From Candidatus Latescibacterota bacterium (lineage in GTDB: Bacteria; Latescibacterota; UBA2968): 64,000 nucleotides of DNA. Position 1 is the first letter of the stretch. Each line of letters opens with the position of its first letter. The stretch is from positions 2,208,001 through 2,272,000 of the forward strand of contig OZ244960.1 of the NCBI GenBank assembly GCA_965222605.1. Direction: 5' to 3'. Below the pieces are notes generated by a model. It was not told the origin of the DNA. It worked only from the letters and a program-made list of their open reading frames with translations, and ran no database searches. The translations under genes were made by a program, and so were the position numbers. This document shows, piece by piece, positions 24,678 to 64,000 of the stretch.

Positions 24678-24719
24678 AAAAACAGGCCATCAGCCGCATG
24701 CATAACGGTTGATGGCCTG
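24676..24719. terminator. Terminator between convergent genes
   Basis: CAGGCCATCAGCCG / CGGTTGATGGCCTG stem with an A-run on the left (U-tract for the minus-strand operon). Confidence 0.7.
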
Positions 24720-24766
24720 ATATTCTGGGGTGGTGTAGGAGGTGGCCCTTTCACCTCTTACCTTTT

Positions 24767-31100: not shown

Positions 31101-31205
31101 GCGTGCATCCCGCACAGTCCCACTGATTTTCCCCACCGACCCCGCCTCACTCATTGTGGGCCAGCACAGTGCCCCAACCAGTATCAGACCAATAATTTTG
31201 TTCAT
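28152..31205 (-). CDS. TonB-dependent receptor with N-terminal carboxypeptidase-regulatory-like domain
   Basis: GKISGTVRDARGEPLPGANV, plug PGV..IRG..VDG..GGMDAEYGNAQGGVI, QDKMEFEGLVVNAGVRFD, C-terminal PRSIVFGARLKF. Confidence 0.92.
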   Translation of the reverse strand: MNKIIGLILVGALCWPTMSEAGSVGKISGTVRDARGEPLPGANVVVQGTRRGATTDSEGYFLILAIEPGEYQMEATMVGYAPRVNNAVVVRADFTTTIDFQLEETTLQAAEMLVVAERPPVEPDRTTSRYIIDVVDINRVPLARTAEDLIELSPGVSLDGNLRIRGSNVVGSGGQRLNETFVEVDGIKLVNNDGFSTPNFMGINKSALQEVQVVVGGMDAEYGNAQGGVISLITRESRDKFGGLGEYRLTLPGKKHWGSNVYESAIHEGQADFNDPTFASEIDSRTNQPAHQQTDYTGVWGHFREGSFSGPISEDAGFFLSLTNSRQAPLYPDIDNGEPFNIQLSGNATYRLGNNTKVKVGSVYGYYKGYNFARVFSDGTGGTSAIPEGSARSLQNATEGKNIFVPGGFAGVGEGNETENVLYAVLTHTISSKTFYELRISHQRSAVDTSGIPATTEAIRRSSAGFYLPRDVHSFDYYRRNRWLLKGDLTSQITRGHLVKGGFELTRFSIYQHEEGFPDPQIRQIRLVGKGDPILGMEPFTPLQYALYLQDKMEFEGLVVNAGVRFDAVDPGEAWGYAGEKILWHHYSSLTRWRNVPLEDSPLNTAWSTRLGISHPITARASIRFFTGTFHQFNDMQWFYTRFFRSSVPDKDLNGNGVIDQHEIYNSLAHSLAGKFGSVSTDPVRTTSFEVGVDWNFAGDYIASVTAFYKDQEGQIDGQSAHMEDPAYGSVSTYASGITNKSFLTSRGFEISFKKMFTRMTSFNLSYNLQWVKSFEGGKRAAKWFYVPDATWVNSDKFFSGIEVESNGQEMPIVPDAAARAAFAEKADQIMQKWIDQVGSISTGRIFEPPTEIEPGLWLFSNTSYGIPTLRGGIDRRNYATAQFLFSAPPDFHFSPLAGFRVTMIYRVQSGTPWWYAPPEGGQVRRNAPISTVTDMNFEKEFQFGTSTTATGFLEIRNIWNQKDDMTTGFNSVQYGLTLPSPTDKVYQTHGDTDELTRYNRGLGLPRSIVFGARLKF

Positions 31206-31226: not shown

Positions 31227-31943
31227 TCAGTTAGAAAAGAAAAACTTAATCCTTGCATCAAAACTGAGCTTCTGTAAAGGATATGCCTCTGTCAGACCCC
31301 ACGCTTCCATTGGCCGCACGCGGCTGATGACCAGTTTGTACTGCCCGCGCACATCTATCGCCAGAGAGGATGAGGCGTAAAATTCCAGGCCACCACCCAG
31401 ATTGAAACCCAGCGCAACGCGCCGATCCGAGACCGACTCCAGCACGATCGATTCATCCAACGGCTGGCTTCTTTGCCCCGGAAAGATCAGGCCACTGATC
31501 TTATTCTCGACAAAGGTGAACCCCGTTCCAATCAGGAGATACGGCGAACTTCCGCCCCCCTGTGCCAACTTGGCACCGCTCCCGTTGATATGCCACAAAT
31601 AGTTAATCATACCACCACCCCACACCATCTCGGAGTTGGCATTTGGACTATTGTACTCGTTGCCATCAATAGACCAGAAAAAGGTGCGCTTCTCGAGTTC
31701 ACCACCGCTATATCCCCCGTAGAACGCATCGACTTCGGCACTCCAGCTCTGGTTGAGCACATAGACAAAGGTACCGCCGAAATTAAAGCCACCCGAAGGA
31801 TACCATTCGCCCAATTTGAACGCAGGCCTGTCGTATCCGAGGGCAACGCCGACACCCCACGTACCGTCAACCTGTGCTTCGCCCCTATCTGCACACAGAC
31901 AGATCAGAACAAAACACAAAAAAATAGCTGCTATAAACTTCAT
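31227..31943 (-). CDS. Outer-membrane beta-barrel protein (OmpA-like 8-strand)
   Basis: Signal peptide, SPYLLIGTG, GFNLGGGLEF, amphipathic strands; AAGGAGG RBS. Confidence 0.75.
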   Translation of the reverse strand: MKFIAAIFLCFVLICLCADRGEAQVDGTWGVGVALGYDRPAFKLGEWYPSGGFNFGGTFVYVLNQSWSAEVDAFYGGYSGGELEKRTFFWSIDGNEYNSPNANSEMVWGGGMINYLWHINGSGAKLAQGGGSSPYLLIGTGFTFVENKISGLIFPGQRSQPLDESIVLESVSDRRVALGFNLGGGLEFYASSSLAIDVRGQYKLVISRVRPMEAWGLTEAYPLQKLSFDARIKFFFSN

Positions 31944-31999
31944 AAGCAATCCTCCTTTCCAGAGAAATAAGCGCAATTATGTACTCTGCAACTTCTGCT

Positions 32000-32028: not shown

Positions 32029-32143
32029 GTGTTTTTAATATTGAAAATTAGCATGGCTATGATAACTTAATGCAATTGGGTTTACAAAGCCGCAGTTATT
32101 GGACATATTCTTTAAAAATAAACCTCTCTGTGAGACCATAGCA

Positions 32144-49548: not shown

Positions 49549-49604
49549 CGCACCCTTCTCCTTCGCGAATGACCTGGAGGCGCCCAGTACATCCAAATTC
49601 CGCT

Positions 49605-50528
49605 CTACTTTGCTTTTGAGGTGAGGCCCCATTCTTTGCGAAGTTCCCAAATGGATTTTCGATCTTCCAGAGGGGACTTGGGAATGACGTCGCCCGCGTC
49701 CTCTCCCATATGGCGATCGTCAATCGCTTCGGATGCGAGTTGATAACGGGTATCGCTGCTAAAGCGAAAATAATTGGACGTGTTTTTAAGCGAGGCGTGC
49801 ATGAAATACATGCCGAAGATGACGACATCACCCGCGTTAAAAGGGGTGGACGCCCAGCGGACACCCAGAGTTTTCATAACGTCATCGGGATCGGTGGAAA
49901 ACGCGCCCCCATCCAGATCTTGATGCGCGTCCATCGCGCCGTAAGTATTTTTGAGATGCTGGATCTTGTGGGAGCCTAAACAGAGGGCAAGCGGGCCCAT
50001 GTCCAGAGATATATCGCCGAGCGCGGTCCACATCGTGTAGAGGTTTTTGGTGCCAGCACCCATATAGACCACATCGTAATGCGCCCCCGCATTCTGACCT
50101 CGGCAGATCACGCGGAGCCATTTGTGGTCAAATGAAAGAACGGGGCCGCCCATGAAGCGTTCGAAGAAGTCCAGGGTATTTTTGCCTTCAACGATTTCGA
50201 GAAATCCCGACCATTGTTTCACAAGTCGATCCGGAAAGCGGGGACGGCGATTTTCGCCAATCACTGCCTTGTCCAGAGGCGTGTCCGGGGCAAGGAGATT
50301 CTGGGCGGCCATGTTTTCCAGAATTTCTCGCCGGGCATTTTGAATTTGCTGCCGCGTATGAAAGTTGCGAATGATGAGATAGCCGTCTTCTTCGATGCGC
50401 TGGTGGAGAGCCTCGGTATCGTCGAGCAGATGGGTGGCTTCCCTGGGGGTGAAAATAGTTTCGCCAAAGACGAGTTCGCGCCCAGACATCGAAACCCGGG
50501 TGCCGTCGGGAATGTTAAAAGTGGACAT
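49605..50528 (-). CDS. PhyH-family Fe(II)/2OG dioxygenase
   Basis: AHYDVVYMG, WTALGD, GDVVIF..Y.MHAS..N, SSDTRYQ. Confidence 0.88.
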   Translation of the reverse strand: MSTFNIPDGTRVSMSGRELVFGETIFTPREATHLLDDTEALHQRIEEDGYLIIRNFHTRQQIQNARREILENMAAQNLLAPDTPLDKAVIGENRRPRFPDRLVKQWSGFLEIVEGKNTLDFFERFMGGPVLSFDHKWLRVICRGQNAGAHYDVVYMGAGTKNLYTMWTALGDISLDMGPLALCLGSHKIQHLKNTYGAMDAHQDLDGGAFSTDPDDVMKTLGVRWASTPFNAGDVVIFGMYFMHASLKNTSNYFRFSSDTRYQLASEAIDDRHMGEDAGDVIPKSPLEDRKSIWELRKEWGLTSKAK

Positions 50529-50756: not shown

Positions 50757-52322
50757 CTATTGGAGGTAGCGAACCCATACCCGCAGGTCGTTTAGAGTCA
50801 GACGTGAAGAGGCTGCGCCCGAGATGCGGATGCGATTCAGCCCCCACGCAACGAGTTCCAAAGGAATATCGCACAGCAGCCACTGCCCGGGACACGGCAT
50901 GGCGACGACCTTTCCCATCTGGTCGTAAAAGTCGGGCCCCTCTCCCGATTCTGCGGCCAGTGCGCCGTCTGCCATCAGAACGTCGTTAAAGGCCAGATCG
51001 ACGTCAGAGACCCTCTTTATGCCGCCCAGATGGAGACCCAGCCTGACGGATGGGACAGGTCCTCCCTCAGCGGGCGCACGGAGATCGTCGTCGATGCGCA
51101 ATTCTACCGTGCGGGAGGCGCCGCGTTCCAGCACCACAGGACTTTTGGGCGAAAACCCACCCGGTCGGGAAAAGTGTCTGTCTCCCCCCTTCAACCAGTA
51201 TCCGGCCGCGTCGTACTCGCAGGTTGGGTTTGGAACATACATCTTGTCCTTTCCCGCAAGCCCTTCGGGGCCGTGAAGATCGCGCAGGATATCGAACGAG
51301 AGTGTACCTGGTGTGTACATGAAGTTGAACAGGAAGATACCGTCTGCGCCGGACGACCACGCGGTAAGGACTCGGGCGCGCCAGGCCTCCACTGAGTTGT
51401 AGCCCCCATTTTCGGTCGCGCGGGATTCGTCCAGTCCGGCCCAGAACTGACACCCATATCGGTGGGCGATCTCCACGGCCTCCTCCCAGTCTCGAAGGAC
51501 AAAGTATCCACCCCCAATCCAGATGTCGATCAGGTCCTGGCGCATCCACTCCGCCACGTCCAGACCGAGCGCACGCGAGTAGGCCGTCGAATCCGGGGTT
51601 CGGGCGGCGAACAGGATCGGGCGGCCCCGTTCGCGTCCGACCGATTCGGTCATCTCCCGGATGCGGCGGAAAAGTCCGGTCATCATTTCCCGCTCCTCGT
51701 CGGTCGCCTCCCCTCCCCAGGCAGTGGATCGAAAACAAGTCGGGTGCCGGAAAAAGTCGAGCTTGATGCCGTCCAGGTCGTAGCGACAGCAGACTTCCTC
51801 GAGAATCCGAAACACCTGTTCTCGAACCTCGTCGAACGAAAAGTCCAGAGCGCTCCAGCGCCCATGGGGCGACTCTTCCCGACGTGTTCCGACCAGAAAT
51901 GCCGTGCGCTCCTGTTTCCAGGGGTTGCTGTTCCAGCGCTTCCAGCCGTGTTCGGTGTCCATCGCGTCGTGGGTGTCGTTCATGCGCATGGCCCAGAACG
52001 CCTCGAAGCCATTCTTGCGGCAAAAATCGATGTAGACCTCGAGTCCGTCGGGGCCGTCGCCGTAGACTTCCGCTATGTGACCGCGCGGCCATTCCTGGGC
52101 GACCTGAGAGCGGTAGAGCCTGGCCACGTTGAACTGATGCACCAGGGAGTAAGTCAGGGTATCAACCGGCATGCCGGTAAGGTAGGGAAAGATGCACTCA
52201 TACGTTTCGATCACACCTCCGTCCTTGCCCATGTGCATGCCGTCTGAATGCACGACGAGGCGTCGCTTGCGCCCGGCGGCCCCTTTGCGGAGAGCCTTGA
52301 TTTGCGCATCTGAGAGTGCCAT
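50757..52322 (-). CDS. GHL10/DUF187-like putative glycoside hydrolase (paralog B)
   Basis: MALSDAQIKALRK..AGRKRR, MRMNDTHD, YDLDGIKLDFFRHP, GADGIFLFN. Confidence 0.65.
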   Translation of the reverse strand: MALSDAQIKALRKGAAGRKRRLVVHSDGMHMGKDGGVIETYECIFPYLTGMPVDTLTYSLVHQFNVARLYRSQVAQEWPRGHIAEVYGDGPDGLEVYIDFCRKNGFEAFWAMRMNDTHDAMDTEHGWKRWNSNPWKQERTAFLVGTRREESPHGRWSALDFSFDEVREQVFRILEEVCCRYDLDGIKLDFFRHPTCFRSTAWGGEATDEEREMMTGLFRRIREMTESVGRERGRPILFAARTPDSTAYSRALGLDVAEWMRQDLIDIWIGGGYFVLRDWEEAVEIAHRYGCQFWAGLDESRATENGGYNSVEAWRARVLTAWSSGADGIFLFNFMYTPGTLSFDILRDLHGPEGLAGKDKMYVPNPTCEYDAAGYWLKGGDRHFSRPGGFSPKSPVVLERGASRTVELRIDDDLRAPAEGGPVPSVRLGLHLGGIKRVSDVDLAFNDVLMADGALAAESGEGPDFYDQMGKVVAMPCPGQWLLCDIPLELVAWGLNRIRISGAASSRLTLNDLRVWVRYLQ

Positions 52323-52471
52323 CAGTTCGACCTCGTTTCTTTTCAAAGACTACCTTCAAAAGTATTCGGAGACCGGGGGAAAGTCAACTCTAACCTGAGC
52401 CGATTCCCGAGTAAACGACCATCCGCGCAGCATTATCGTTTTCCGTGAGCGGTCACCGCCACCGCGAATAA

Positions 52472-54037
52472 TCACCCCGCACAATGCCTTTCCCAGGCAT
52501 CATACATCTCGGCCATCTCTTTCACCAGGTCCGGGTATTGATCCGCAAGGTCATTCACCTCTGTTCGATCAACCTCCATATCGTAAAGCTCCCAAAGCGA
52601 ATTCGGGTCCGGCTGCGCTTTTTGTTCTGACCTTGCCTCTCTTTCAGGACGCCAGGGATTGTAATCTCTCCAATAATCAGGAGAGACGAGTTTCCATTTT
52701 CCCATTCTCACGGCACGCCAGAGGGCGATCTCACTATACTGATTCCAGTACAGCGCCCTGTGGCCCTCGCGCTGTTCGCCCCTGAAGACCGGCAGCAGGC
52801 TCTTGCCTTCAAGGGGCAGGACGCCTTTGCGGGAGGACGGGTATTCCGCTCCTGCAATATCTGTACAGGTGGCCATAACATCGATGAGGTGGCCGATCTG
52901 ATGGGTGATCTCGCCCCCGTTTTGAATCACGCGCGGCCAGTGTGCGATGAGCGGTGTAGAGATGCCACCCTCGTGATTCCACCGCTTGAATTTGCGAAAA
53001 GGCGTATTGCTGAGATTGGCCCAGGGCAGATCCACCGTACGGTACGACGCCACGGGACCGGGTGGAATATCGGGCGTGCTGGTCCTGTCTTCATCGCTGG
53101 CACCGTTGTCGGACAGAAACAGCACGAGGGTGTTTTCCTCTATACCGAGTTCGCGGAGTTTGGCCTGAAGGCGCCCGACGTTCTGGTCCACGCGGTCAAT
53201 CATGGCCGCGTAAACGGCCATCTTCAGATCCCAGGCATCTCGATCCTCAATCCCCTCCCACGACAGCGAGTCCGGATCGCGCGCCGAGAGGGCCCACCGC
53301 TCGTCAATCAGACCCATCTCGACCATGCGTTCGAGGCGCTGCTCCCTCAGTCTATCCCAACCGGCTTTGTATTTGCCCTTATACTTTGCGATATCCCTCG
53401 GCCAGGCGTGCAGGGGGTAGTGCGGCGCAGTATAGGCCACGTACAGGAAGAAAGGTCTGTCTTCTCGCCCGTACTCGTCCAGGTATCCAAGGGCGTAATC
53501 GGTGAACGCGTCGGTGGTGTAGAAGTCCTTATCTTCGGGTGTGTAGGGCTGGATGACCCTGCCGTCGATGGCAAATGCGGGATTGTCATCCAGAAATTTT
53601 TCACCGGGCTGTTCTTCACCGGGTCGTTGCAGACCCGGGTTAAAGAAGTTGCAGCATCCGTCAACGAGGCCGTAATAGCGGTCGAAACCCCGTTCGACGG
53701 GTAATCCAGAAAAGAGCCCGGACAGATGCCATTTTCCCGCCATGAGGGTGCGGTAGCCGGCAGCCTTGAGTACCTCGGCGATAGTGACACAGCCCTTCGG
53801 CCCTCCCTTGCTGACTTGCTGGGAGTAAAGCCCGGTCAGCAGAGACGCCCGCGTGGGTGCGCACAGGGCATTGTTGTAAAACTGGGTAAAGCGAAGGCCG
53901 TTTGAGGCAAGCCGGTCGAGGTTGGGAGTGCGGATCTCGCCGCCATAGCATCCCAGGTCGGAAAAGCCCATGTCATCGACCATAATCAAGAGAATATTCG
54001 GTCTTGAGCTATTTTCCATCGATCTACTCGAGTTCAT
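52472..54037 (-). CDS. Arylsulfatase (Cys-type, S1 family)
   Basis: PNILLIMVDDMG, CAPTRASLLTG, GKWHL, SDNG. Confidence 0.93.
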   Translation of the reverse strand: MNSSRSMENSSRPNILLIMVDDMGFSDLGCYGGEIRTPNLDRLASNGLRFTQFYNNALCAPTRASLLTGLYSQQVSKGGPKGCVTIAEVLKAAGYRTLMAGKWHLSGLFSGLPVERGFDRYYGLVDGCCNFFNPGLQRPGEEQPGEKFLDDNPAFAIDGRVIQPYTPEDKDFYTTDAFTDYALGYLDEYGREDRPFFLYVAYTAPHYPLHAWPRDIAKYKGKYKAGWDRLREQRLERMVEMGLIDERWALSARDPDSLSWEGIEDRDAWDLKMAVYAAMIDRVDQNVGRLQAKLRELGIEENTLVLFLSDNGASDEDRTSTPDIPPGPVASYRTVDLPWANLSNTPFRKFKRWNHEGGISTPLIAHWPRVIQNGGEITHQIGHLIDVMATCTDIAGAEYPSSRKGVLPLEGKSLLPVFRGEQREGHRALYWNQYSEIALWRAVRMGKWKLVSPDYWRDYNPWRPEREARSEQKAQPDPNSLWELYDMEVDRTEVNDLADQYPDLVKEMAEMYDAWERHCAG

Positions 54038-54049
54038 CAGGTATCTCCT

Positions 54050-55495
54050 TTAAAAACTCATTGTTTGCGGAGGGCCGGGGTCCATCGCCAACACACGGGC
54101 GTCAAAGTTTTTTTTCAAAAGCTGCAGCTTCAGGTCCCGGTATTCCGGATTCTGCCACAGGTCGATAAATTCCCAGGGGTCGTTTTCCAGATCGTAGAGT
54201 TCGCCCAGGTCGTCGTGATCAGCACTGTGGTAGGCCACGATCTTCCACCGGTCATCCCGGTACATCGTCGCGTGTACGGGGCTGGATGGCCTGTGGTCGA
54301 AGTATTCAGACCGCACAAATTCCCGGTGCTTATCCGGTTCTGCACGCCCGGTCAGAATGGGCAGCAACGACTTTCCCTGCGTGCGCTCGGGAATCGGCAG
54401 TCCAGCAAGGTCCAGCAAGGTGGGCGCGATGTCAATGAGTTCGACCAGGGCCGAGCTGCGCATACCGCACCGGAAGTGTTCGGGCCACGACCAGATGAGG
54501 GGGACGTGTACTCCGCCTTCGTAGAAGCGGCAACCCTTCAGGACCAGGCCGTGGTCCCCGAGCATTTCACCGTGGTCGCTGGTGAAGAGCACGACCGTGT
54601 TTTCGCGCTGTGCGGTTTCGTCCAGAAAGCTCAGGATGCGTCCGAACTGGTCATCTACCAGCGCGACCATGGCGCAGTATGCAGCATACAGGGCCCGGGC
54701 GTTTCTCTCATCGGGGGGAAGAGAGCGAGTCTGGAAACGCACGCCCGCCTCCGCCAGCCCGTCCTGGTGGGCGATATCGCTTTCGCGGAAGTGTGGGAAG
54801 GGCATGGCGGCGGGATCGAACCGACGATAGTATTCCCAGGGCGGGTTAAAGGGTTTGTGGGGGTAGAAGACATTCACGCACAGCATCCAGGGAGCCTGTG
54901 CCTGGCCGATAAACTCAAGGGCTTTCTCCGTACACCAGGTAGTCTGGTGCAGGTCGGGTGGTACGTTGTCGCGTTCGGGTGTTGGGGCCATGACGCGGTC
55001 CATCTTCCGGTGCGGGAGCCTGACGACTTCGGCGGGATCCAGACCTTTTTTACTCAGCCAATCGGCGTAGTCATCCTGGTCGGGCGACAGTGGGTTAACT
55101 GAAGTGTGGTTCCACTTGAAGTACCTGAACCCGTCGTCGGCGCGGGATTCGCGCCTGTTCTTGCTCCCCGCCAGATGCAGTTTTCCAACCAGCCCGCAAT
55201 CGTATCCAGCCTCCGCCAGCAAGCGGCTCACGAGCGTGGCCTCGGCTTCTTTGGGAAAGTAGTCGTTGCCGTTGTAATTGACGTGTACTGCACTGGGATA
55301 TCGCCCGGTCATAAAGCTGGCACGGCTCGGGGCGCAAATAGGATGCTGGCAGTAGGCGCGCGTGAAGGCCACGCCATCGGATACCAGCCGGTCGAGTGCT
55401 GGGGTGCGAGCGTGGGGATTGCCCAGCACGCCGATGGTGTCGAAGCGCTGTTGGTCGGTGCAGTACCACAGGATATTTGGCAGACGGTCTGGCAT
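54050..55495 (-). CDS. Sulfatase (Cys-type, choline-sulfatase-like)
   Basis: PNILWYCTDQQR, CAPSRASFMTG, GKLHL, TSDHGEMLGDHG. Confidence 0.93.
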   Translation of the reverse strand: MPDRLPNILWYCTDQQRFDTIGVLGNPHARTPALDRLVSDGVAFTRAYCQHPICAPSRASFMTGRYPSAVHVNYNGNDYFPKEAEATLVSRLLAEAGYDCGLVGKLHLAGSKNRRESRADDGFRYFKWNHTSVNPLSPDQDDYADWLSKKGLDPAEVVRLPHRKMDRVMAPTPERDNVPPDLHQTTWCTEKALEFIGQAQAPWMLCVNVFYPHKPFNPPWEYYRRFDPAAMPFPHFRESDIAHQDGLAEAGVRFQTRSLPPDERNARALYAAYCAMVALVDDQFGRILSFLDETAQRENTVVLFTSDHGEMLGDHGLVLKGCRFYEGGVHVPLIWSWPEHFRCGMRSSALVELIDIAPTLLDLAGLPIPERTQGKSLLPILTGRAEPDKHREFVRSEYFDHRPSSPVHATMYRDDRWKIVAYHSADHDDLGELYDLENDPWEFIDLWQNPEYRDLKLQLLKKNFDARVLAMDPGPPQTMSF

Positions 55496-55521: not shown

Positions 55522-56511
55522 TCAGTCGATATCCATCTCGCTAGCCCGCAAAATGGCTTCGTGGACGGCGAGGTCGTGGGCCGAGTTCCAACGGAGTTCC
55601 TTTTCGCCCTGAATGACTTTCGCCAGGTCAAAAAAGTCCCCGTGATAACGCCCGTCCAGCATTTCTAATTCCACTGTCTGGTAGCCTTCACGAAATTCAC
55701 CGAGGGGTTTATCCAGGGAAAATTGAAGTTTCGGCGGTTCGAGTGGATCGATTACCACAGCGCCATTCTCGCCAATGACCTCGAACTTCCGGCGTCCGTG
55801 TGGGTCGATATGGTTGCTTCGGATGGTAGCGGCTGCCGTCGGATACCGGAACACGGCAAGCTGGTTGTCTGCCAGGCTGTCCTTGTCCGGACGTGAGCGA
55901 TAGGTGAATGTTTCGACCCCTTGCGGCGGGCCCAGAACGGTAACCATCTGATCGATGATATGGCAGCCGAGCTCGAACATGCCGCCGCCCGGGAACTGCC
56001 CTATTTCGATGCGCGCGGAATCGCTCGCGAGTTTTCCGATCATGCCGTTGAGCTCGGTAATGGATCCGAGCCAACCGTTATCGACCGCTTTGAAGAGAAA
56101 CTCGAAGCCGGGGTTATACCGAAACATATATCCCATCTGGATCGTCAACCCGGCTTTATCGGCGGTGGCGTGTAACCGGCGGAGGGCGCTCATGGAAGGG
56201 CCAGCCGGTTTGTCCAGGTGGACGTGCAGGCCTGCCTCGAGGCAGCGCTGGGCGGTAGAAACGAGTTCGCCTACGTCGGTTTCAACGGCGACGACTTTGA
56301 GGCCCTCGGTACTGAGCAACTGGTCCTCCGTCAGCCAGTTTGCTTCCTCATAGGCAGGGTGCGCTGCCATTTCATTCTGCCTCTTTTCGTCCGCTTCGAC
56401 GATGCCGGCTACTTCGTAAAGTTGGTTCAGTTCCCGCATTGTTTGGAACTTACCGGTGGCATGAGCGTGTTTTGTGCCGATTTGACCGATGCGTATTCTG
56501 TTCGTGTCCAT
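55522..56511 (-). CDS. Gfo/Idh/MocA-family oxidoreductase
   Basis: IGQIG..HAH, HVHLDKP, GYMFRYNP, GGMFELGCHIID. Confidence 0.9.
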   Translation of the reverse strand: MDTNRIRIGQIGTKHAHATGKFQTMRELNQLYEVAGIVEADEKRQNEMAAHPAYEEANWLTEDQLLSTEGLKVVAVETDVGELVSTAQRCLEAGLHVHLDKPAGPSMSALRRLHATADKAGLTIQMGYMFRYNPGFEFLFKAVDNGWLGSITELNGMIGKLASDSARIEIGQFPGGGMFELGCHIIDQMVTVLGPPQGVETFTYRSRPDKDSLADNQLAVFRYPTAAATIRSNHIDPHGRRKFEVIGENGAVVIDPLEPPKLQFSLDKPLGEFREGYQTVELEMLDGRYHGDFFDLAKVIQGEKELRWNSAHDLAVHEAILRASEMDID

Positions 56512-56588: not shown

Positions 56589-57659
56589 CTACGGCTGCAG
56601 CAAGACCTTTCCGATCGAAAGCCGTTCCTCAATCAGCCGGTGCGCTGAAGATGCGTCTTCAAAGGGGTATACGTGGCGGACCACCGGCCGGAGCCTGTCG
56701 GCCTGGGCCAGGTCAATCAACGCTTCCATAATCTCGGGTGCGCGCGCCTCCGCATTGCTGGTACCCCCCCACCCGATCAACTTCAGATTTTTCACCCAGA
56801 ACGGCCAGAAGTCGACCTGACCTGTACCGGTGAAAGTGTTGGAACCAAAACTGACCATCCGGCCGCCTTCAGCCATGCAGTCCAGACTTCGGGTGAAGAC
56901 TTCGCCACCTACCGACTCCCACACCACGTCTACGCCGCGCCCTGCGGTGGCTTCCAGCACCGCAGCCACGAAGTCGTCGGTCCGATAGTTGATTGCCAGG
57001 TCAGCGCCGAGTTCGCGTGTCAGCTCGAGTTTTTCCGGGCTGCCAGCGGTGACCAACACCCGCGCCCCGAAGAATTTGGCAAGCTGGATGGCCAGGACTC
57101 CCGTGCCGCCTGCGGCGGCGTGGAGAAGCACAGTCTCACCTGCCTTCAAACCCGCTGCGATTTTCAAAGTGTGATACGCCACCGGCGCATAACCGAATGC
57201 GGCCACCTGCTCGGGCGTAAACGACGGGGGACAGGCCGTTGTACCCGGCCTTCCGTCGGGCCTGGGCTGCAAAGCCTTCGCATCCACCATACCCCACTCC
57301 ACGCACGAGCCTGGTCGCAGGCCTCCAACCAGATGGCGAGAACCGGGTTCAACACCTTCGACCTTCGTCCCCGGCACCACAACTTCCACGCAGGCTGTGC
57401 CACCGGGAAAATAGGGAGGACCCGCGATACCGTAACTCGATTCTCGTGCCGATCCGATGCGGCTGCTACCGCCGCGCCTGATGTGGAGCTGAATGTAGTC
57501 GATGGCAACGGCCAGAACCTTGACCAGAACCTCGTCGGGACCCGGCTGTGGCGTGGCTACCTCCTCACAGTGCAGGACCTCCGGCCCGCCAAATTCGCGG
57601 TATACTACGGCTTTCATCGTGTCGGGAAATCGGACGGGATTAATATCTCTTCCGGACAT
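56589..57659 (-). CDS. MDR-family NADPH:quinone oxidoreductase-like protein
   Basis: FGGPEVL, GETVLLHAAAGGTG, GRGVDVVWESVGG, GKVLL. Confidence 0.9.
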   Translation of the reverse strand: MSGRDINPVRFPDTMKAVVYREFGGPEVLHCEEVATPQPGPDEVLVKVLAVAIDYIQLHIRRGGSSRIGSARESSYGIAGPPYFPGGTACVEVVVPGTKVEGVEPGSRHLVGGLRPGSCVEWGMVDAKALQPRPDGRPGTTACPPSFTPEQVAAFGYAPVAYHTLKIAAGLKAGETVLLHAAAGGTGVLAIQLAKFFGARVLVTAGSPEKLELTRELGADLAINYRTDDFVAAVLEATAGRGVDVVWESVGGEVFTRSLDCMAEGGRMVSFGSNTFTGTGQVDFWPFWVKNLKLIGWGGTSNAEARAPEIMEALIDLAQADRLRPVVRHVYPFEDASSAHRLIEERLSIGKVLLQP

Positions 57660-57825: not shown

Positions 57826-59322
57826 TCATCCGTCGCCCCGCGCAACGACCTCCGACCAGGGGACGCCCGAATGGATGTCCTCGTGCGCTTGAGACCAGGT
57901 CTCAGTTTCATAACCGGGGACATTTGCCGGAGTCAATCCCTCTGGAAGCGAGCCGTGCAGAAGCGGCGGACAGGAGCGGAAACGCAGCAGATCGATCAGC
58001 AGCTTTTCCCGGATCTCGCGGTAGTCGGGATCATCCCACCGGTTGATGAGTTCGCCCGGGTCAACGCGATGGTCGTAAAGTTCGCTCTCATCCCCCGTAA
58101 TATCGAGCGTAATCCGAAATTCCTCCGTACGCATCGACATATGGTGATATGACTTGACGTGTTCGCAGAGCACGGCCTGCTTATTCCAGGTATCTCTCCC
58201 CTGAAGAGCGGGAATCAGGCTTCTGCCCTGAACAGTATTGGGCGCCTCAATACCCAGAAGATCGGTCAAGGTGGGATAGAGATCGACGGATTCCACAAAG
58301 CTATCGAAAACCTCCCCCTGCGGCAACGCCGCGGGATAGCGCAGAATAAACGGCACCCGATGGATGCACTCGTAAAATCCGAGATTTTTCCAGATCAGGC
58401 CGTGTTCGCCGGCAAAATCGCCGTGGTCTGCCGAATAAATGACGATGGTCTCCTCGAGAATGCCCTGGGATTCCAATTCTTCGAGAATGCGTCCAATCTG
58501 CTCATCAATCAGGGAGACCAGTCCGTAATAGTGGGCGATGCACTTTTGTAGATGTGCCCTATCCCTGGGCCTGAAGGGATAGGGAAATTCTCCCCGTTTG
58601 GCCTGTTGCTGGCGTTCGGACTTGCCCTCAAACTCATCCGCAGCATTGGCCGGCACCGTAACCTCCTCGGGATCGTACATGCGATCAAAGGGCACGGGCA
58701 CGGTAAGCGGATCGTGTGGTCTTGAAAAAGAGATACATGCGAAGAAGGGTTTGCCCTTATCGCGATCCCGAAGATATTTGACAGACTCATTCCCACACCA
58801 GACCTCGACCGAATGCGCCAGTGGCAGGGGCGAAGTCACCGCACATTCGGGGTGCTTTGTCCACTTTTTGTTCAGATCAAAATCATCTGCCACCCCGGCT
58901 TCTACCAGACTGCGAAAATAGTCGCAACTCAACGGGTCGTCGGGCAGGGCGTCGGTCATGTGGTCGAAACGGTGATAATCGAACTCGCGGCGGGACCAGT
59001 GGACTCCAATATGCCCCTTGCCGATGATAGCTGTTTGATACCCCACCCGCTTCAATGTAGATGTGATCGGATTCAGGTGATCGGGCGGTTCGTCAGTGTT
59101 GCTGTGCCGCCGGTGAAAATGCTCGTACATCCCCGTCATGTAGGAAATCCGGGATGGACCACAGTGCGCGCTATTGCCATACGCCCGCGAAAACCGCACC
59201 CCCTCGTGCGCCAGGCGATCCATGTTGGGCGTCCGAAGCAGGGGTTCCCCAGCGCAGGACATCGTGCGCGCATTGTGCTGGTCGGTCAAAATCCAGAGGA
59301 TGTTGGGTTGTTCAGTTGCCAT
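57826..59322 (-). CDS. Sulfatase (Cys-type)
   Basis: PNILWILTDQH, CGPSRISYMTG, GKGH, SADHGDFAGEHG. Confidence 0.92.
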   Translation of the reverse strand: MATEQPNILWILTDQHNARTMSCAGEPLLRTPNMDRLAHEGVRFSRAYGNSAHCGPSRISYMTGMYEHFHRRHSNTDEPPDHLNPITSTLKRVGYQTAIIGKGHIGVHWSRREFDYHRFDHMTDALPDDPLSCDYFRSLVEAGVADDFDLNKKWTKHPECAVTSPLPLAHSVEVWCGNESVKYLRDRDKGKPFFACISFSRPHDPLTVPVPFDRMYDPEEVTVPANAADEFEGKSERQQQAKRGEFPYPFRPRDRAHLQKCIAHYYGLVSLIDEQIGRILEELESQGILEETIVIYSADHGDFAGEHGLIWKNLGFYECIHRVPFILRYPAALPQGEVFDSFVESVDLYPTLTDLLGIEAPNTVQGRSLIPALQGRDTWNKQAVLCEHVKSYHHMSMRTEEFRITLDITGDESELYDHRVDPGELINRWDDPDYREIREKLLIDLLRFRSCPPLLHGSLPEGLTPANVPGYETETWSQAHEDIHSGVPWSEVVARGDG

Positions 59323-59352
59323 GGTGGGTTATCTCCTTTTGAAAATTCCAAA

Positions 59353-61365
59353 TTACCAGCCGTGAACATAATGACCGTCTCCAAGAGGGAACCAGATGTA
59401 GTCAACAAGGGAGGAAAGGAAGACCCCCGCGACGTAGCCTATCGGGAGACCGATGAAGAAAGGAGTCGCACGGCGATACAGACCAATGCCCCCGATGCGC
59501 ATAATCAGGCTCTTGGCGGCCCAGGTCAGGAAGATGGAGAAGGCGTAGATCCGGGGACCCGTGGTATTCTGAAAGGCCAGACCGAGGGGATGGAGGGGCC
59601 ACCAGGGCAGGCGGTTGCGCAACAATATCATGAGCAGAACCTCCAGGGCGCCGAAAAGACAAACGCCCACCTTGGCGGGGTCGAAGACGGTGAGATCGCT
59701 CTCCAGGACTTTCGCCGCCAGTCTGTTGTACGGAGCGACCAGTGCTCCCGCCGGGTTAAAAGGTCCTTTGTGCAGGTTCTGCCCACCGTAGATGTAGGGC
59801 AGGTAAATCACGAAGAAGAAGGAGGCAAACAGGCCCGCGAGAAACGCCAGCAGAACGAGCCAGACGACGAGCGTTCGCCTGCGGGTGAGGCTGCTGAGGA
59901 GCTTGAAGTGATGGGGCAGCGCCGGCCAGGCCGGGATGCGGAGGTTACCGAAGAAAACTCCCGTGTTGACCATGCCGATGCCGACGAGGTCCCCCCGGGA
60001 AAGGTTCGCGGTGCCGACCAGGGTCTCCAGCATAGGTCCCCCTTTTACGGCCACCGGAAAAAGGTGGGTAAATCCGCTGGCGGCCGTGAACTTGGCAACG
60101 GTCAGGTAGGCGATGTAGAGCATTAGAGTGTGGGCGATGGCCATTGGGAGCGATATGCCGAAGGCGTGCATCAAGCCGACGATGAAGACGGTAGAGATCC
60201 CGAACCCGAGCAGGGCAATCCGATAGGACACAGTCCCCTCGTCCTTCGGAGCACCCACGCCCCCGAGTGCAGTGCGCCAGACCCGCTGCAGATGGCTCCG
60301 CGCGACCCAGACCGACCAGAGCGCCAACAGGACCATTGCGCCGTAGCCCTCCAGGTCGAGGATTCCAGTGGGAGGAGCCTGCTGCCCGGATAGTCCAATA
60401 CCGAAGCCAGTGCGGTTCATGATCCCCAGTTTGAAGATCGCCAGCAGGCGGAACACCCAGAGGCTGAGCAGGATATCCAGGGTGCAGAAGTAGGTAAGCC
60501 CGATCACCGTAGGCAGGACCCGGAGATAGACCGGAGGGAAGTCCCTGCTTACATACACCGCCTTGGTCAGGTAGAATCCAAAAACGGTGATTTCAGGCAA
60601 TACGACCGCGAAGTAACCTACGATATTCCAGAGAAAGATACCAAATACCAGAAAAAAGCCCACCCAGAAGACGCCATCTCGGAAGAGGCGGGGTACCCGC
60701 CCCGGCTCGTCGAATCCCGACGTCAACTCCACGGCAAATTGTGCAAGCGGATAGGTCAATCGCTCGGCATCCTCCCACTGGCGCTGGAGGATGATAAACG
60801 CGCAGATGCCGGCTGTGAGCACGGCGATGGGGATCGCCGTACCCCAGAAGAGGGGCCTGACCCACCCGATCCAGGGCACGGGTGTCTCGGGCGCAAGGCC
60901 GTCGTAATAGGGTCGGATAACGGCCGGAGACGCATCGGGCATATACCACCAGGGCAGGGCGTCGAAGAACGCCTCTTCCCACCGGTTCTCGGGGGAGGCG
61001 AAGTAGGTGGGTGCGGCCAGGGTACTCGCCCAGTAGCCGGTAAAACCCTCGAAGGGGATGTTTCCGGCGATCCAGGACATGCTGTAGATCACCAGGAGTT
61101 CAGTGCCGCTCAACGCCGCCCGGGGGAGGAAGGCCTTCAGACCCAGGTTGGCGAAGAGCCAGAGGCCAAACGGGATCAGCATCGCCATCGGAAACTGGGA
61201 CTTGTTCAAGGAAAAGGAGCCCATGACCATGCCGGCATAGTCGGCGTAGATGTTGAGAATTACGACAGTGGCCGCGCCCAGGAGAACGGAGCGGAGGGTG
61301 ATGCGGGCGGGCGCCTTCTCGGGAGCCTGGCTGGCGTTGGTGCCAAGAGCTGAAGAATCTTGCAT
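59353..61365 (-). CDS. DUF6785/DUF6784-like polytopic membrane protein (OPT-superfamily-like putative transporter)
   Basis: Many TM helices; TYFASPENRW, RQWEDAERLTYPL, WWPLHPLG, GG..LYRR..PFF.G motifs. Confidence 0.7.
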   Translation of the reverse strand: MQDSSALGTNASQAPEKAPARITLRSVLLGAATVVILNIYADYAGMVMGSFSLNKSQFPMAMLIPFGLWLFANLGLKAFLPRAALSGTELLVIYSMSWIAGNIPFEGFTGYWASTLAAPTYFASPENRWEEAFFDALPWWYMPDASPAVIRPYYDGLAPETPVPWIGWVRPLFWGTAIPIAVLTAGICAFIILQRQWEDAERLTYPLAQFAVELTSGFDEPGRVPRLFRDGVFWVGFFLVFGIFLWNIVGYFAVVLPEITVFGFYLTKAVYVSRDFPPVYLRVLPTVIGLTYFCTLDILLSLWVFRLLAIFKLGIMNRTGFGIGLSGQQAPPTGILDLEGYGAMVLLALWSVWVARSHLQRVWRTALGGVGAPKDEGTVSYRIALLGFGISTVFIVGLMHAFGISLPMAIAHTLMLYIAYLTVAKFTAASGFTHLFPVAVKGGPMLETLVGTANLSRGDLVGIGMVNTGVFFGNLRIPAWPALPHHFKLLSSLTRRRTLVVWLVLLAFLAGLFASFFFVIYLPYIYGGQNLHKGPFNPAGALVAPYNRLAAKVLESDLTVFDPAKVGVCLFGALEVLLMILLRNRLPWWPLHPLGLAFQNTTGPRIYAFSIFLTWAAKSLIMRIGGIGLYRRATPFFIGLPIGYVAGVFLSSLVDYIWFPLGDGHYVHGW

Positions 61366-61447
61366 GGGATCTGTTAAAAAAATATCGCAATGGCGCAAAA
61401 GCCACCCATTCAAACCAAAAGGTTCCAGGTGGGTAAGCTTTGTACCT

Positions 61448-61491
61448 GAGATCCCCTCGGCTCCGTCTAAAAGGGAAGCCGAGGGGATTTC
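61448..61491. other. Strong intergenic hairpin (terminator or mRNA-stabilising stem) after the second PorV gene
   Basis: GAGATCCCCTCGGCT / AGCCGAGGGGATTTC; no clear U-tract on the minus strand. Confidence 0.6.
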
Positions 61492-61509
61492 GCGTTTTCA
61501 GCCCGGCGG

Positions 61510-62493
61510 TTACAGCGAGCCGGAAAAGCTCAGACGGATCGGGGCATCGAAATATTTGCCGAAGTTGGAGTAGGCGATGTCCAGCCGAATATTTCGACCT
61601 GAGAAGGTGCCCTTCAGCCCTGCGCCGACAGTCCACGATTCTGCATCGTAGTCAAACTTATAGCCAGCGCGCAGCGCGACGATATTCTTCAACCACAACT
61701 CGCCGCCCAGATTATAGCGCTGGTCGCGGTCGGTGAAGTAAGCCCCCTCGAAGGAGGCGGTTAGCGACACTGGGTCGCCCAACTCGCCGATGAACTCCAT
61801 CGAGGTGCCCAGATTGAACACCACCGGGAATTCCGCGGGGTCGCTGTGGATCTTCATCTCGTTGCCCAGGTTGTTGATGCCCATGCCGATGCGGAGGCTG
61901 CGGTAGCCAGTGTGCAGCAGCGTGTAGAGGCTCAGCGAGGTCCCCCCCAGCTTTTCCGGGCCAAGATTGGACTGGACGAATGAGAACTTGGCGGCCGCAG
62001 AGAGCTTGTCGGTCAACTGACGGGCAAAAATCACACCCAAGGCGTAGTCGCCTACATCCAGCATTTCTCCTGTGCCATCGGGCTCCAGGATGGTGGTCCG
62101 TTCGATCTCTGGAGGTTGGTGGCTAACCACGGAAATGCCCAGCATAGCGTTCCACCCGACATTGAGGGCAACAGCGCCAGAGTAGAACTCGGAGTCCACC
62201 AGCCACTGCGCGTATCCAAAGGAATAACCCAACCGCCGCACCGAGGTGATACCGGCCGGATTCAAATAGATCGCATCCATGCCCTCAGCAACAGAGGTAT
62301 AGGCGTCGCCCATCGCCGCAATACGGGCACTTGGTGTGACCTTCAGGAAGGCGAGCGTGCTCGGTCCTTGCTTTTCAAAAGCTCCGGTAACCTTGTCATT
62401 AAACAGGTGCGGCACATCCAGATCTTGCTGTGCCTCCGCTCCCAGCGTGCCGCAGACGGCAATCGCGATCGCAAAGAAGAGAATTCTTTTCAT
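61510..62493 (-). CDS. PorV/PorQ-family outer-membrane protein (paralog of 24767-25747)
   Basis: EKQGPST..FLKVTP.AR.A.MGDAYTSVAEG shared with the first copy; LRAGYKF; signal peptide. Confidence 0.85.
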   Translation of the reverse strand: MKRILFFAIAIAVCGTLGAEAQQDLDVPHLFNDKVTGAFEKQGPSTLAFLKVTPSARIAAMGDAYTSVAEGMDAIYLNPAGITSVRRLGYSFGYAQWLVDSEFYSGAVALNVGWNAMLGISVVSHQPPEIERTTILEPDGTGEMLDVGDYALGVIFARQLTDKLSAAAKFSFVQSNLGPEKLGGTSLSLYTLLHTGYRSLRIGMGINNLGNEMKIHSDPAEFPVVFNLGTSMEFIGELGDPVSLTASFEGAYFTDRDQRYNLGGELWLKNIVALRAGYKFDYDAESWTVGAGLKGTFSGRNIRLDIAYSNFGKYFDAPIRLSFSGSL

Positions 62494-62521
62494 AGTTGAA
62501 ACCATCCTTTATTTAAAACAG

Positions 62522-64000
62522 CTACTTGTGCAGGATAAAGGCTCCTCGAGACAGCTTGCCCATGCTCTCCTGTACTTCGGATTCCACGACAAAATAGTAC
62601 AGTCCGGAAATGACTTCTCCACTGAGGAACCGGTCCTTTAACTCCCAATTGGTCTCGCCGAGAAGCGGGTTGTCGTGTTTGATTATCGCTACCATATCGC
62701 CCGATACCGAAAAGATGCGGATCGTACACTTGTGGGGTAATCCCACAAACCGCAGGCTCTCGGCGCCCTGGTAACTCTGGCCGTCCAGAGTTACACTGAA
62801 CGGGTTGGGCACCACTCGCACCTGCCGCTCCAGGTTGTCGCTCATTATGCTACTGGCCATCTTCGGGCGCAGCGGCACATTGACCTTTGTCTCTGGCGCG
62901 GAGTAGCCGCCCTCCAGTCCGCTCACGGTGAGGTGTTCCCGGACTTTCGGAGGCAGATCGGCCAGCGTCACTGACCCTTCGCTCCAGTCCTGCTTGGGAG
63001 AAGCAACGGCGCGGACGTTGTAGATGTAGCGGAAGCCCGCCAGGGAATTGGTATCTACATACCTATACGTTCCAGCACCTGTGGCCGGGACCTCTTCCAC
63101 CAGGTCCCAAGGGCCGTATTCCTGGAAGGTAGATCGGTAGATCCGGTAGGCCACAATGTCGGCCTCCCCATATTCGGGGTTGATTACCTTTTCCGCGGCG
63201 TCGGTCCACGAGAGCTCGATGTTGGCATCTCGGTTATTCCCCGCCTGGAAGTCCACGTCCGGTGGGGCGTTGGGGATGCGTAAGCCACTGTCGTATGCGA
63301 ACTGGGCGTGCGATAGGTTTTGCAGGAGGGCCTTTTCACCCTGGGCGAGCACCTGCTTGCGGGCATCGTCATTCAGACCCCTTTCCCCCACCCCGAATGC
63401 CCAGCTCATCTGGTCCCTTGCAAAACCGGTCCTGGAATCGACGTTGCTCTCTTCTATGTCCCCTGCGTGGCCAAAGACGTAGGTGACCACGATCTTGGCC
63501 TTATCTCCGGGCGCCAGGTCGTAAGGACCGTAGATCTGGTCGGACCAGACGACCCCCTCTGCAGGAGGATCGGCCATTGAGGGAGCCGTGTAAATGTCGT
63601 AGAGTTCGGCCATACCTACGCCCTTGCCGATGGGGTCGTCGATATTATCAAGCCCGTGTGCCCTGAACCAATGCCCCAGAACCTGGTCGCTCCTCGGCTC
63701 CACATAGCCTTGCGCCAGATCGTTCGCGTTAAAGACGTGGCTGGGGCCGGAATTGCGAAACGCCAGGGGGGCAAATCCGGCGTATTCCGGCGCGATCGGT
63801 GTGCCCTTTGGCCGGTCTCCGCTGGCTGGGAAGGAACCACCGGGATTTTCAAGGTCGGGATCAAATGGATCTCCTGTGTCATCCTCAAAGCTATTGGTGG
63901 TATTCCCATCATATACATAGGTGATGTATTTGCCGGAAAAGTCCGCAGCGGTCAGGCCGCTGAGAGAATTGGGCTGAAAGCCGGGAGAGCCCGAGAAACG
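62522..64000 (-). CDS. Secreted FN3/T9SS-CTD-like protein (paralog of 25790-28132), 5'-truncated by the window edge
   Basis: Frame open to 64000 (FQPNSLSGLTA.DF.GKYI, PLAFRNSG, YGPY.LAPGDKAKIV, NLSHAQFAY, VVPNPF all shared with the first copy). Confidence 0.85.
   Translation of the reverse strand, partial: RFSGSPGFQPNSLSGLTAADFSGKYITYVYDGNTTNSFEDDTGDPFDPDLENPGGSFPASGDRPKGTPIAPEYAGFAPLAFRNSGPSHVFNANDLAQGYVEPRSDQVLGHWFRAHGLDNIDDPIGKGVGMAELYDIYTAPSMADPPAEGVVWSDQIYGPYDLAPGDKAKIVVTYVFGHAGDIEESNVDSRTGFARDQMSWAFGVGERGLNDDARKQVLAQGEKALLQNLSHAQFAYDSGLRIPNAPPDVDFQAGNNRDANIELSWTDAAEKVINPEYGEADIVAYRIYRSTFQEYGPWDLVEEVPATGAGTYRYVDTNSLAGFRYIYNVRAVASPKQDWSEGSVTLADLPPKVREHLTVSGLEGGYSAPETKVNVPLRPKMASSIMSDNLERQVRVVPNPFSVTLDGQSYQGAESLRFVGLPHKCTIRIFSVSGDMVAIIKHDNPLLGETNWELKDRFLSGEVISGLYYFVVESEVQESMGKLSRGAFILHK

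Follow-up and report, generated by a model that had tools for sequence, protein, structure and literature searches.

The DNA analysed here, referred to below as the window, is a stretch of 64,000 nucleotides (positions 2208001-2272000) of the 6.34-Mb single-contig genome of a Candidatus Latescibacterota bacterium. The region 59353-64000 of the window encodes the C-terminal part of an exported "cargo" protein with a characteristic C-terminal domain (CTD), a PorV-like outer-membrane barrel and a polytopic membrane protein of the DUF6785 family. On balance, this region is probably the downstream half of an outer-membrane cassette for capture and import, one of 28 paralogs that would constitute a SusD-independent route with a surface partner tethered by means of type IX secretion (the T9SS). 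Coordinates are window positions unless marked otherwise; "window-equivalent" denotes window numbering continued past 64000, and L111 is the stretch at window-equivalent 50-70 kb (L111 4066-5277 corresponds to window 54066-55277). Every gene of the locus is on the minus strand, at the positions given in the original prediction for this region. The principal components are the following:

62522..64000, with the full open reading frame (ORF) extending to window-equivalent 64882, minus strand: cargo (CTD-protein) gene, 786 aa, the last 492 codons (3' part) of which are inside the window
61510..62505, minus strand: gene for a PorV/PorQ-family outer-membrane barrel, 331 aa, with a signal peptide, beginning 17 bp after the cargo gene
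61448..61491, minus strand: 14-bp stem-loop between the PorV-like gene and the DUF6785 gene, with no U-tract
59353..61413, minus strand: gene for a DUF6785/DUF6784 polytopic membrane protein (Pfam) with a predicted OPT/YSL fold; probable ATG at 61365
window-equivalent 64910..68020, minus strand: gene for the TonB-dependent transporter (TBDT) of this cassette, 1036 aa (CarboxypepD_reg 77.5 bits, Plug 38.1 bits)
L001:6080-6904, upstream of the TBDT gene, minus strand: gene for the small outer-membrane barrel of this cassette, 274 aa, with a weak OMP_b-brl match

The original prediction held that a TonB receptor gene lies just past position 64000, and the CarboxypepD_reg/Plug ORF, 28 bp upstream of the cargo gene, is indeed found there. 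Homologs of all components were sought genome-wide with phmmer against all ORFs of at least 90 aa, which yielded 26 cargo homologs, 34 PorV-family proteins, 35 TBDT matches, 22 small barrels and 56 DUF6785 proteins. Each of the 26 cargo genes is flanked on the same strand by a TBDT gene immediately upstream and a PorV-like gene immediately downstream, in full agreement with the anticipated one-to-one pairing of cargo and PorV. The small barrel is also present in 22 of these cassettes, with order and strand common to all 22 four-gene sets, and is missing from four further, three-gene sets; because of the small barrel ahead of the TBDT, the unit comprises four genes rather than three. Intergenic gaps within the cassettes are mostly shorter than 130 bp, one cargo-PorV gap being 949 bp. 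Two extra sets consist of a TBDT, a distant cargo homolog with the same tail (hhalign probability 99.8 and 99.9) and a PorV-family protein, which together with the 26 sets found by phmmer gives 28 sets in the genome. Six PorV-family genes stand outside the cassettes. At contig positions 225174-228350 (L102), we also observe a PorV-family gene without an adjoining cargo or TBDT gene that is followed, 100 bp on, by a DUF6785 gene.

A paralogous first cassette is present in the same window:

31227..31976, minus strand: small outer-membrane barrel, identified by homology
28152..31205, minus strand: TBDT, 1017 aa, with CarboxypepD_reg and Plug
25790..28132, minus strand: cargo paralog, 780 aa
24767..25747, minus strand: PorV/PorQ-family barrel, 326 aa (NF033709 168.3 bits)
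24676..24726, minus strand: terminator-like hairpin with a T-run after the PorV-like gene (coordinates derived from an offset)

The order in this first module (small barrel, TBDT, cargo, PorV) is identical to that in the second. The two cargo proteins are 56.0% identical over 496 aa (tblastn, E 0) and the two PorV-like proteins 58.7% identical over 327 aa (E 7e-121), a likeness that, given these E values, is far beyond chance and bears out the proposed repetition of the cargo-then-PorV order with homologous but diverged proteins. Quick maximum-likelihood trees of the four cassette components have shallow clades in common, such as {2270, 2233, 3484, 3496}, {2175, 6037, 5933}, {4339, 5119} and {577, 4053, 553}. 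The Robinson-Foulds (RF) distances for the six pairs of trees range from 16 to 26, compared to permutation means of 37.6 to 45.7, and none of the 2000 label permutations reached the observed distance in any of the six pairs. The shared shallow clades and the RF distances below those of the permutations show that the cassettes were duplicated as blocks. The cassettes near 553 kb and 4053 kb (~552.7-560.2 and 4049.3-4056.7 kb) are near-identical in all four genes, with branch lengths of ~0, and therefore stem from a recent segmental duplication.

All cargo paralogs start with a Sec signal peptide that lacks a lipobox Cys and end in a conserved block of ~95 residues that includes the motifs VVPNPF and G.Y.Y.VES. 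The AlphaFold2 (AF2) model of the cargo, with a predicted local distance difference test (pLDDT) score of 84.3 and a predicted template-modelling (TM) score of 0.85, consists of a beta-supersandwich (residues ~30-535), helices (491-531), an Fn3 domain (545-627) and a C-terminal beta domain (689-786), with the strands at 689-784 predicted to form a T9SS CTD-like beta-sandwich at the C-terminus of this Sec-exported protein. When the supersandwich was compared to known structures using VIA-align, the bacterial glucoamylase N-domain 1lf6 was matched with Z 17.9 and a root-mean-square deviation of 3.0 over 236 aligned residues. More generally, the matches are to the non-catalytic N-domains of glycoside hydrolase (GH) families GH15, GH94 (phosphorylases) and GH116 (Z 17-18, 236-275 residues; Z 17.5 for GH116), with galactose mutarotases scoring lower (Z 11-13.7). 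The domain match is clear only with VIA-align; in Foldseek, the whole model matched Fn3 proteins and GH116 at low TM scores of ~0.2. The model contains no catalytic domain beside the supersandwich, the cargo matches no Pfam, NCBIfam or PDB-sequence enzyme family, and a cargo profile gave a single insignificant lectin match (E 0.088) among PDB sequences. Taken together, the cargo models as a galactose-mutarotase-like beta-supersandwich followed by an Fn3 domain and a divergent T9SS-type tail.

The barrels encoded directly downstream of the cargo genes in the window both belong to the PorV/PorQ family, scoring 145.4 bits (61510..62505) and 168.3 bits (24767..25747) on NF033709 with a cut-off of 90. 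The barrel at 61510..62505 is below the thresholds of the PorV equivalog NF033710 (48.8 bits vs 250) and the PorQ equivalog NF033711 (59.8 bits vs 220), and has no match to the PorP/SprF model TIGR03519 (cut-off 90.55) at E <=1, the paralog scoring 23.3 bits. A profile of 20 cassette barrels matches Flavobacterium johnsoniae PorV (6h3i_F and the 8gl6 series) with E 2.8e-19. The best candidate for a general PorV is encoded outside the cassettes, at contig positions 1504623..1505687 (227.9 bits on the PorV_fam model; equivalog 161.1 vs 250). Of the remaining secretion machinery, SprA/Sov is present in a single 2086-aa frame (TIGR04189, 492.5 and 133.7 bits, 630.3 together, cut-off 200), and a PorU-like ORF in a 1900-aa frame scores 237.4 and 72.1 bits, below the cut-off of 420.

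The TBDT of the second cassette reaches 83.8 bits on the SusC/RagA model TIGR04056, for which 368 are needed, and this match covers the N-terminal part only. No SusD/RagB lipoprotein follows the TBDT, as the cargo lacks both a Pfam family match and a lipobox Cys. The sole PF07980 (SusD_RagB) match in the genome, of 33 bits and with one in-frame TAG, is located at 3.84 Mb (3841329-3845574). This match adjoins a weak TBDT match, and the two may represent a single, possibly decayed classical SusC/SusD pair. The small barrel combines a signal peptide and an aromatic C-terminus with its weak OMP_b-brl match; proteins of this family have ~215 mature residues and precede the TBDT in 22 of the 28 cassettes. 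The profile of this family has one odd match in the PDB, the designed trefoil lectin Mitsuba-1 (E 1.8e-6, profile positions 124-173).

The DUF6785-like identity of the protein encoded next to this cassette was readily confirmed, with 289.6 bits for Pfam DUF6785 (cut-off 25) and 78.9 bits for DUF6784 (cut-off 26.4). The listed ORF starts with TTG, and the in-frame ATG 16 codons inward, at 61365, is more likely to be the true start. Foldseek with the AF2 model (pLDDT 84.1) retrieved only the structures 7wsr and 7wst of the barley transporter Yellow Stripe 1 (HvYS1) (E 7e-9 and 8.7e-9, TM 0.58-0.66), the next match having E 0.012 and TM ~0.1. There is no OPT match at the sequence level: only the DUF6785 and DUF6784 Pfam models are matched at E <=0.01, and a profile of 19 DUF6785 paralogs matches no PDB chain at E <=10. 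Among the 26 cassettes, a DUF6785 gene is found downstream of PorV on the same strand within 300 bp in 6, within 3 kb in 11 and within 10 kb in 16, compared to random placement means of 0.04, 0.33 and 1.12, respectively, with a maximum of 2 within 300 bp in 2000 random trials. Altogether, 25 of the 56 DUF6785 genes have a cassette within 10 kb. These associations suggest that DUF6785 might be the inner-membrane step of the cassette route. In the published literature, as covered by titles and abstract listings exclusive of supplements, we found no paper describing DUF6785.

The hairpin at 61448-61491 consists of a 14-bp stem followed by CTCAGGTACAAAGC, with no U-run, and was not called in the terminator scan. 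The 96-nt spacer between the PorV-like and DUF6785 genes has a folding energy of -39.1 kcal/mol (z = -3.3), a value matched by 1 of 200 shuffles. Among the RNA-library runs that contain the locus (20 rows from 8 studies in all), 13 contain 51-67% of the sampled words of 59000-64000, and some are labelled sponge metagenome. Run X1 yielded one 13.9-kb contig with ~2% differences (L111 5469-18837) that extends from the GFO gene to the small barrel, across the hairpin, and run X4 one 14.1-kb contig, also with ~2% differences, over the same span (L111 5285-19100); these two contigs stem from two studies. A contig of run X14 also bridges the hairpin, which is thus bridged in 3 of the 4 runs examined; in run X9, contigs break at the hairpin, between L111 11383 and 11473, a gap that proves nothing.

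Downstream of the DUF6785 gene, the sulfatases and oxidoreductases originally noted on the same strand are present, three and two in number, respectively, in the following arrangement:

57826..59322, minus strand: sulfatase, 498 aa, no signal peptide (Pfam Sulfatase 165.9 bits from residue 6)
56589..57659, minus strand: oxidoreductase of the Zn-dependent alcohol dehydrogenase (Zn-ADH) family, profile match
55522..56511, minus strand: GFO/IDH/MocA oxidoreductase, profile match
54050..55495, minus strand: sulfatase, 481 aa, no signal peptide, profile match
52472..54037, minus strand: sulfatase, 521 aa, no signal peptide, profile match
50757..52346, minus strand: GHL10-like protein, no signal peptide, weak match (Pfam GHL10 E 5e-5, 23 bits, cut-off 27.9)
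49605..50528, minus strand: PhyH-family dioxygenase, profile match
L001:14031-15164, minus strand: PhyH-family dioxygenase upstream of the second cassette

The X1 and X4 contigs skip 1210 bp inside the sulfatase gene 54050..55495 (window 54066-55277), and related strains without most of this gene appear to exist. Upstream of the small barrel of the second cassette are genes for another DUF6785 protein, heparinase II/III-like and ceramidase-like proteins, the PhyH protein listed above and a third DUF6785 protein. Large TPR proteins adjoin the cassettes, one at 32099-34564 (plus strand) that also contains a GWxTD domain and another at 47035-49650 (minus strand). Two proteins, encoded at 34626-36425 and 36539-38470 (both minus strand), contain dockerin type I and EF-hand motifs, with an arylsulfotransferase-like domain in one and a pectate-lyase-like fold with DUF4955 in the other, and may be extracellular enzymes of the cellulosome-like kind.

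Within the locus, signal peptides are found only in the small barrel, the TBDT, the cargo and the PorV-like protein; the sulfatases, the lyase-like, GHL10-like and PhyH proteins, and the oxidoreductases have none. Genome-wide, ~155 ORFs match the sulfatase profile; a crude test finds no signal-peptide-like N-terminus in ~150 of these, whose leaders are Tat-like in a handful of the total. Such a largely cytoplasmic set of sulfatases would be an unusual layout, and to judge from these N-termini, it fits the import of sulfated oligomers into the cytoplasm. The 87 non-cassette ORFs around 20 cassettes include seven PhyH proteins, five TPR proteins (three with GWxTD) and five GFO/IDH/MocA proteins; PhyH dioxygenases are the commonest cassette neighbors. 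A sulfatase ORF is within 10 kb of 10 of the 26 cassettes. Because the neighborhoods are varied, the substrates of the cassette family are likely to be diverse, and a sulfated glycan is argued for this copy only.

Cargo relatives at 97-99% identity are encoded in chromosomes of Latescibacterota or Latescibacteria, as detected in a scan that is biased to close kin because one peptide pattern was used. The TBDT, cargo and PorV genes are all kept in 78 of 80 related loci and the small barrel in 66, and a DUF6785 gene is located downstream within 300 bp in 24 of these loci and within 3 kb in 39; because many of the loci are mutual orthologs, these counts are not independent. Four of the 80 loci are labelled Gemmatimonadota or Gemmatimonas. 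An apparent cargo-PorV fusion in one of the related loci (L089, an ORF of 1151 aa) was rejected as a frameshift near the tail end by comparison with sister loci. In a survey of 81 sampled genomes of the phylum, in which the best 12 candidates per genome were scored, the cargo family (E <=1e-20) is represented in 36, namely in 17 of 17 genomes of the genus, 21 of 23 of the family, all 6 of a sister family, 1 of 15 of a third family and 0 of 13 of another family. A profile search of the cargo family against 1.84 billion representatives yielded 314 proteins at E <=1e-30 and 2377 at E <=1e-10. Look-alike clusters in the ESM Atlas (scores 0.95-0.96), all of which are unannotated, come most commonly from Rhodothermota, Calditrichota and Bacteroidota and are taken only as a lead.

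Under the proposed mechanism, the tail-bearing cargo would cross the inner membrane via Sec, then the outer membrane via the SprA translocon. Its own PorV-like barrel would then receive it, keep the tail and fix the protein on the surface beside the transporter, much as PorP/SprF-type barrels hold type B CTD proteins. The cargo would serve there as the substrate-binding partner, in the manner of SusD for SusC. The TBDT would pass the captured oligomer to the periplasm, DUF6785 might carry it into the cytoplasm, and the cytoplasmic sulfatases and oxidoreductases would process it.

Several observations weigh against such a tethered import cassette. The cargo tails are only distantly similar to the T9SS CTD models: CHU_C (PF13585, type B) scores 13.1-21.6 bits in 8 of 10 paralog tails and Por_Secre_tail (PF18962, type A) 13.7-15.8 bits in 3 of 10, with a cut-off of 27 in both cases, two of the ten tails match neither model, and no tail reaches a Pfam cut-off. 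No match was found to GldL, GldM or GldN (TIGR03513, TIGR03517, TIGR03523 and PF12081), although the same models are silent in control genomes and this result is not read as absence; GldK matched only FGE-type domains, below the cut-off. The cargo and PorV trees conflict at depth, with 7 pairs of conflicting splits in which both have SH-aLRT support of at least 90, and when three clades of the cargo tree, chosen after inspection of the trees, were put to approximately unbiased (AU) tests with the PorV data, the p values were 0.083, 0.022 and 0.078. Occasional exchange and weak deep signal cannot be distinguished as the source of this conflict, and the anticipated congruence of the two trees thus holds in overall RF distance, which is below all 2000 permutations, and partly fails at the deep nodes. 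In the neighborhoods scanned around 20 cassettes, a sulfatase is present in only 2 of the 87 ORFs, which represent 118 families in all, and no classical GH family is among the 25 neighbor families listed.

Transcription presents a further difficulty. A hairpin of -20 kcal/mol or lower follows the PorV-like gene in 21 of 26 cassettes, vs 9 of 26 controls taken inside cargo genes, and in at least 14 of the 26 cassettes, by our own reading of the sequences, it is followed by a T-run. Given that post-PorV hairpins are common and at least 14 have a T-run, the four-gene cassette itself looks like a transcription unit. The hairpin at 61448-61491 sits where most other cassettes have a terminator-like hairpin and has lost its T-run. 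With such a T-run present in at least 14 of the other cassettes, read-through is a trait of this copy rather than a rule; the original suggestion of read-through, based on the missing U-tract, agrees with the contigs that bridge the hairpin and does not extend to the cassettes in general. The RNA-library contigs, moreover, cannot establish a single transcript and may contain DNA.

These points bear on several other explanations. DUF6785 could be a general nutrient importer that shares catabolic neighborhoods with the cassettes rather than a dedicated step of the route; 31 of the 56 DUF6785 genes are farther than 10 kb from any cassette, 10 of the 26 cassettes lack one in the 10 kb downstream, and most cassettes are set apart from the downstream genes by terminator-like hairpins. 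The association of DUF6785 with the cassettes claimed in the original prediction is thus a marked enrichment downstream of PorV that leaves these ten cassettes out. We nevertheless regard a general importer as rather unlikely, in view of the 6 cassettes with DUF6785 within 300 bp where chance placement gave at most 2, the 24 related loci with the same close spacing and the contigs that cross the junction. Unlikely, too, is a role of the cargo as a surface enzyme, an endo-acting glycanase or lyase supplying the transporter with cut polymers, in a cassette that otherwise works as described. Whole enzymes do share the supersandwich fold, including the GH174 endo-fucanase 9k1g (Z 13.4, 241 residues) and the mutarotases; many Asp, Asn and Glu residues are invariant across 20 cargo paralogs; and the locus encodes no other secreted enzyme. 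The best structural matches of the cargo are, in contrast, non-catalytic N-domains, no enzyme family is matched at the sequence level, and the presence of one cargo per TBDT in a strict position mirrors SusD.

The fate of the exported cargo is the subject of another alternative, whereby the PorV-like barrel is a transient, copy-specific secretion shuttle and the cargo is subsequently cleaved by the PorU-like sortase and released or lipid-linked, with no stable complex formed. PorV shuttles type A CTD proteins in Bacteroidota, and the PorU-like ORF described above is present. This possibility appears quite improbable because 28 private barrels for 28 cargos would be a high price for a transient role, another barrel, nearer to PorV, is present at 1504623..1505687, and the cargo tails lean toward type B proteins, which, according to the part of one account considered here, stay bound to PorP-like barrels (PMC9143113). 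In favor of the tethered cassette, a complex modeled from alignments of the barrel (residues 26-331) and of the cargo tail (672-786) reached an ipSAE of 0.92 in three runs (best control 0.01) that agree in at least 94% of contacts, with partner pLDDT of at least 78; among solved complexes, 58 of 80 attain the mark applied to such models, as do 2 of 110 mismatched pairs. Because PorV structures have already been solved, some of them with bound substrate, this pass indicates likeness and is not proof of binding by this particular pair, and the score may reflect resemblance to the solved PorV complexes, a further point against a firm reading of the tether. Finally, the cassette might not be involved in import at all, the TBDT exporting the tail-bearing protein or assembling it on the surface, in the way of the TBDT Oar for PopC in Myxococcus, or the whole being an adhesin or surface-layer unit. 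A TBDT required in protein secretion has been reported (PMC6434023). With SprA present for export, catabolic enzymes and transporters adjoining this copy, and 28 diverged copies that suggest 28 substrates, such a role seems very improbable.

If the cassettes are tethered capture-and-import systems, they resemble several known systems without coinciding with any of these. As in SusC/SusD (RagA/RagB), a large TBDT with CarboxypepD_reg and Plug domains is followed by the gene for a surface partner, and many diverged copies are found in catabolic loci; unlike SusD, the partner is not a lipoprotein and has no SusD match, consisting instead of a beta-supersandwich that bears a T9SS-type tail, the set also includes a private PorV-like barrel and a small barrel, the TBDT is far below the SusC/RagA threshold, and the enzymes of this locus are cytoplasmic. 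The type B CTD/PorP-SprF pairs (SprB-SprF, PG1035-PorP) share with the cassettes the order of a cargo gene followed by its own barrel, and the cassette tails match CHU_C best, albeit weakly, whereas the barrels here belong to the PorV/PorQ family, the pair is within a TBDT operon and the lineage is outside Bacteroidota. The F. johnsoniae PorV is of the same family, and the model docks the tail on the barrel; the differences are the low equivalog score, the 28 cassette-bound copies in place of one carrier and the separate barrel closer to PorV. HvYS1 and the OPT/YSL transporters, the only structural matches of the DUF6785 model, differ from it in sequence (~15% identity), in the proposed substrate, an oligosaccharide rather than a metal chelate or peptide, and in the expansion to 56 paralogs.

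Recognition, anchoring or targeting of type B CTD proteins by cognate PorP/SprF-like barrels is described in the parts of two publications considered here (PMC9143113, PMC12618676), and the corresponding part of the 2015 Latescibacteria paper presents TonB import as vitamin B12 and iron uptake only (PMC4454575). In the published literature, exclusive of supplements, we found no description of a cassette composed of a TBDT, a CTD protein and PorV. What is new here is the scale (28 cassettes and 56 DUF6785 genes), the small barrel as the fourth gene, the fold of the partner, the statistical link to DUF6785 and the cytoplasmic enzymes.

The broader implication, which we put forward tentatively, is a possible third style of polymer utilization in Latescibacterota and probably other phyla of the Fibrobacterota-Chlorobiota-Bacteroidota (FCB) group, in which dozens of TBDTs would operate with T9SS-tethered partners, sulfated oligomers would pass through the 56-copy, OPT-fold DUF6785 and ~150 sulfatases would strip them in the cytoplasm. 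It would be distinct from both SusCD loci and ABC-based systems in that the partner is fixed by a T9SS tail and a private PorV-like barrel rather than by a lipid anchor. In Bacteroidota, the accepted mark of glycan foraging is the SusC/SusD pair, and genome-based predictions of polysaccharide use draw on it. With one SusD-like match against 28 cassettes of another design, organisms such as this one are invisible to SusD-based locus prediction. The presence of the locus in RNA-library runs of several studies makes its expression accessible to study in nature. Adjacency to the cassettes gives the uncharacterized DUF6785 family a testable role as an oligosaccharide importer, and if the PorV-like barrels hold the partners, T9SS would also serve to assemble nutrient receptors outside Bacteroidota.

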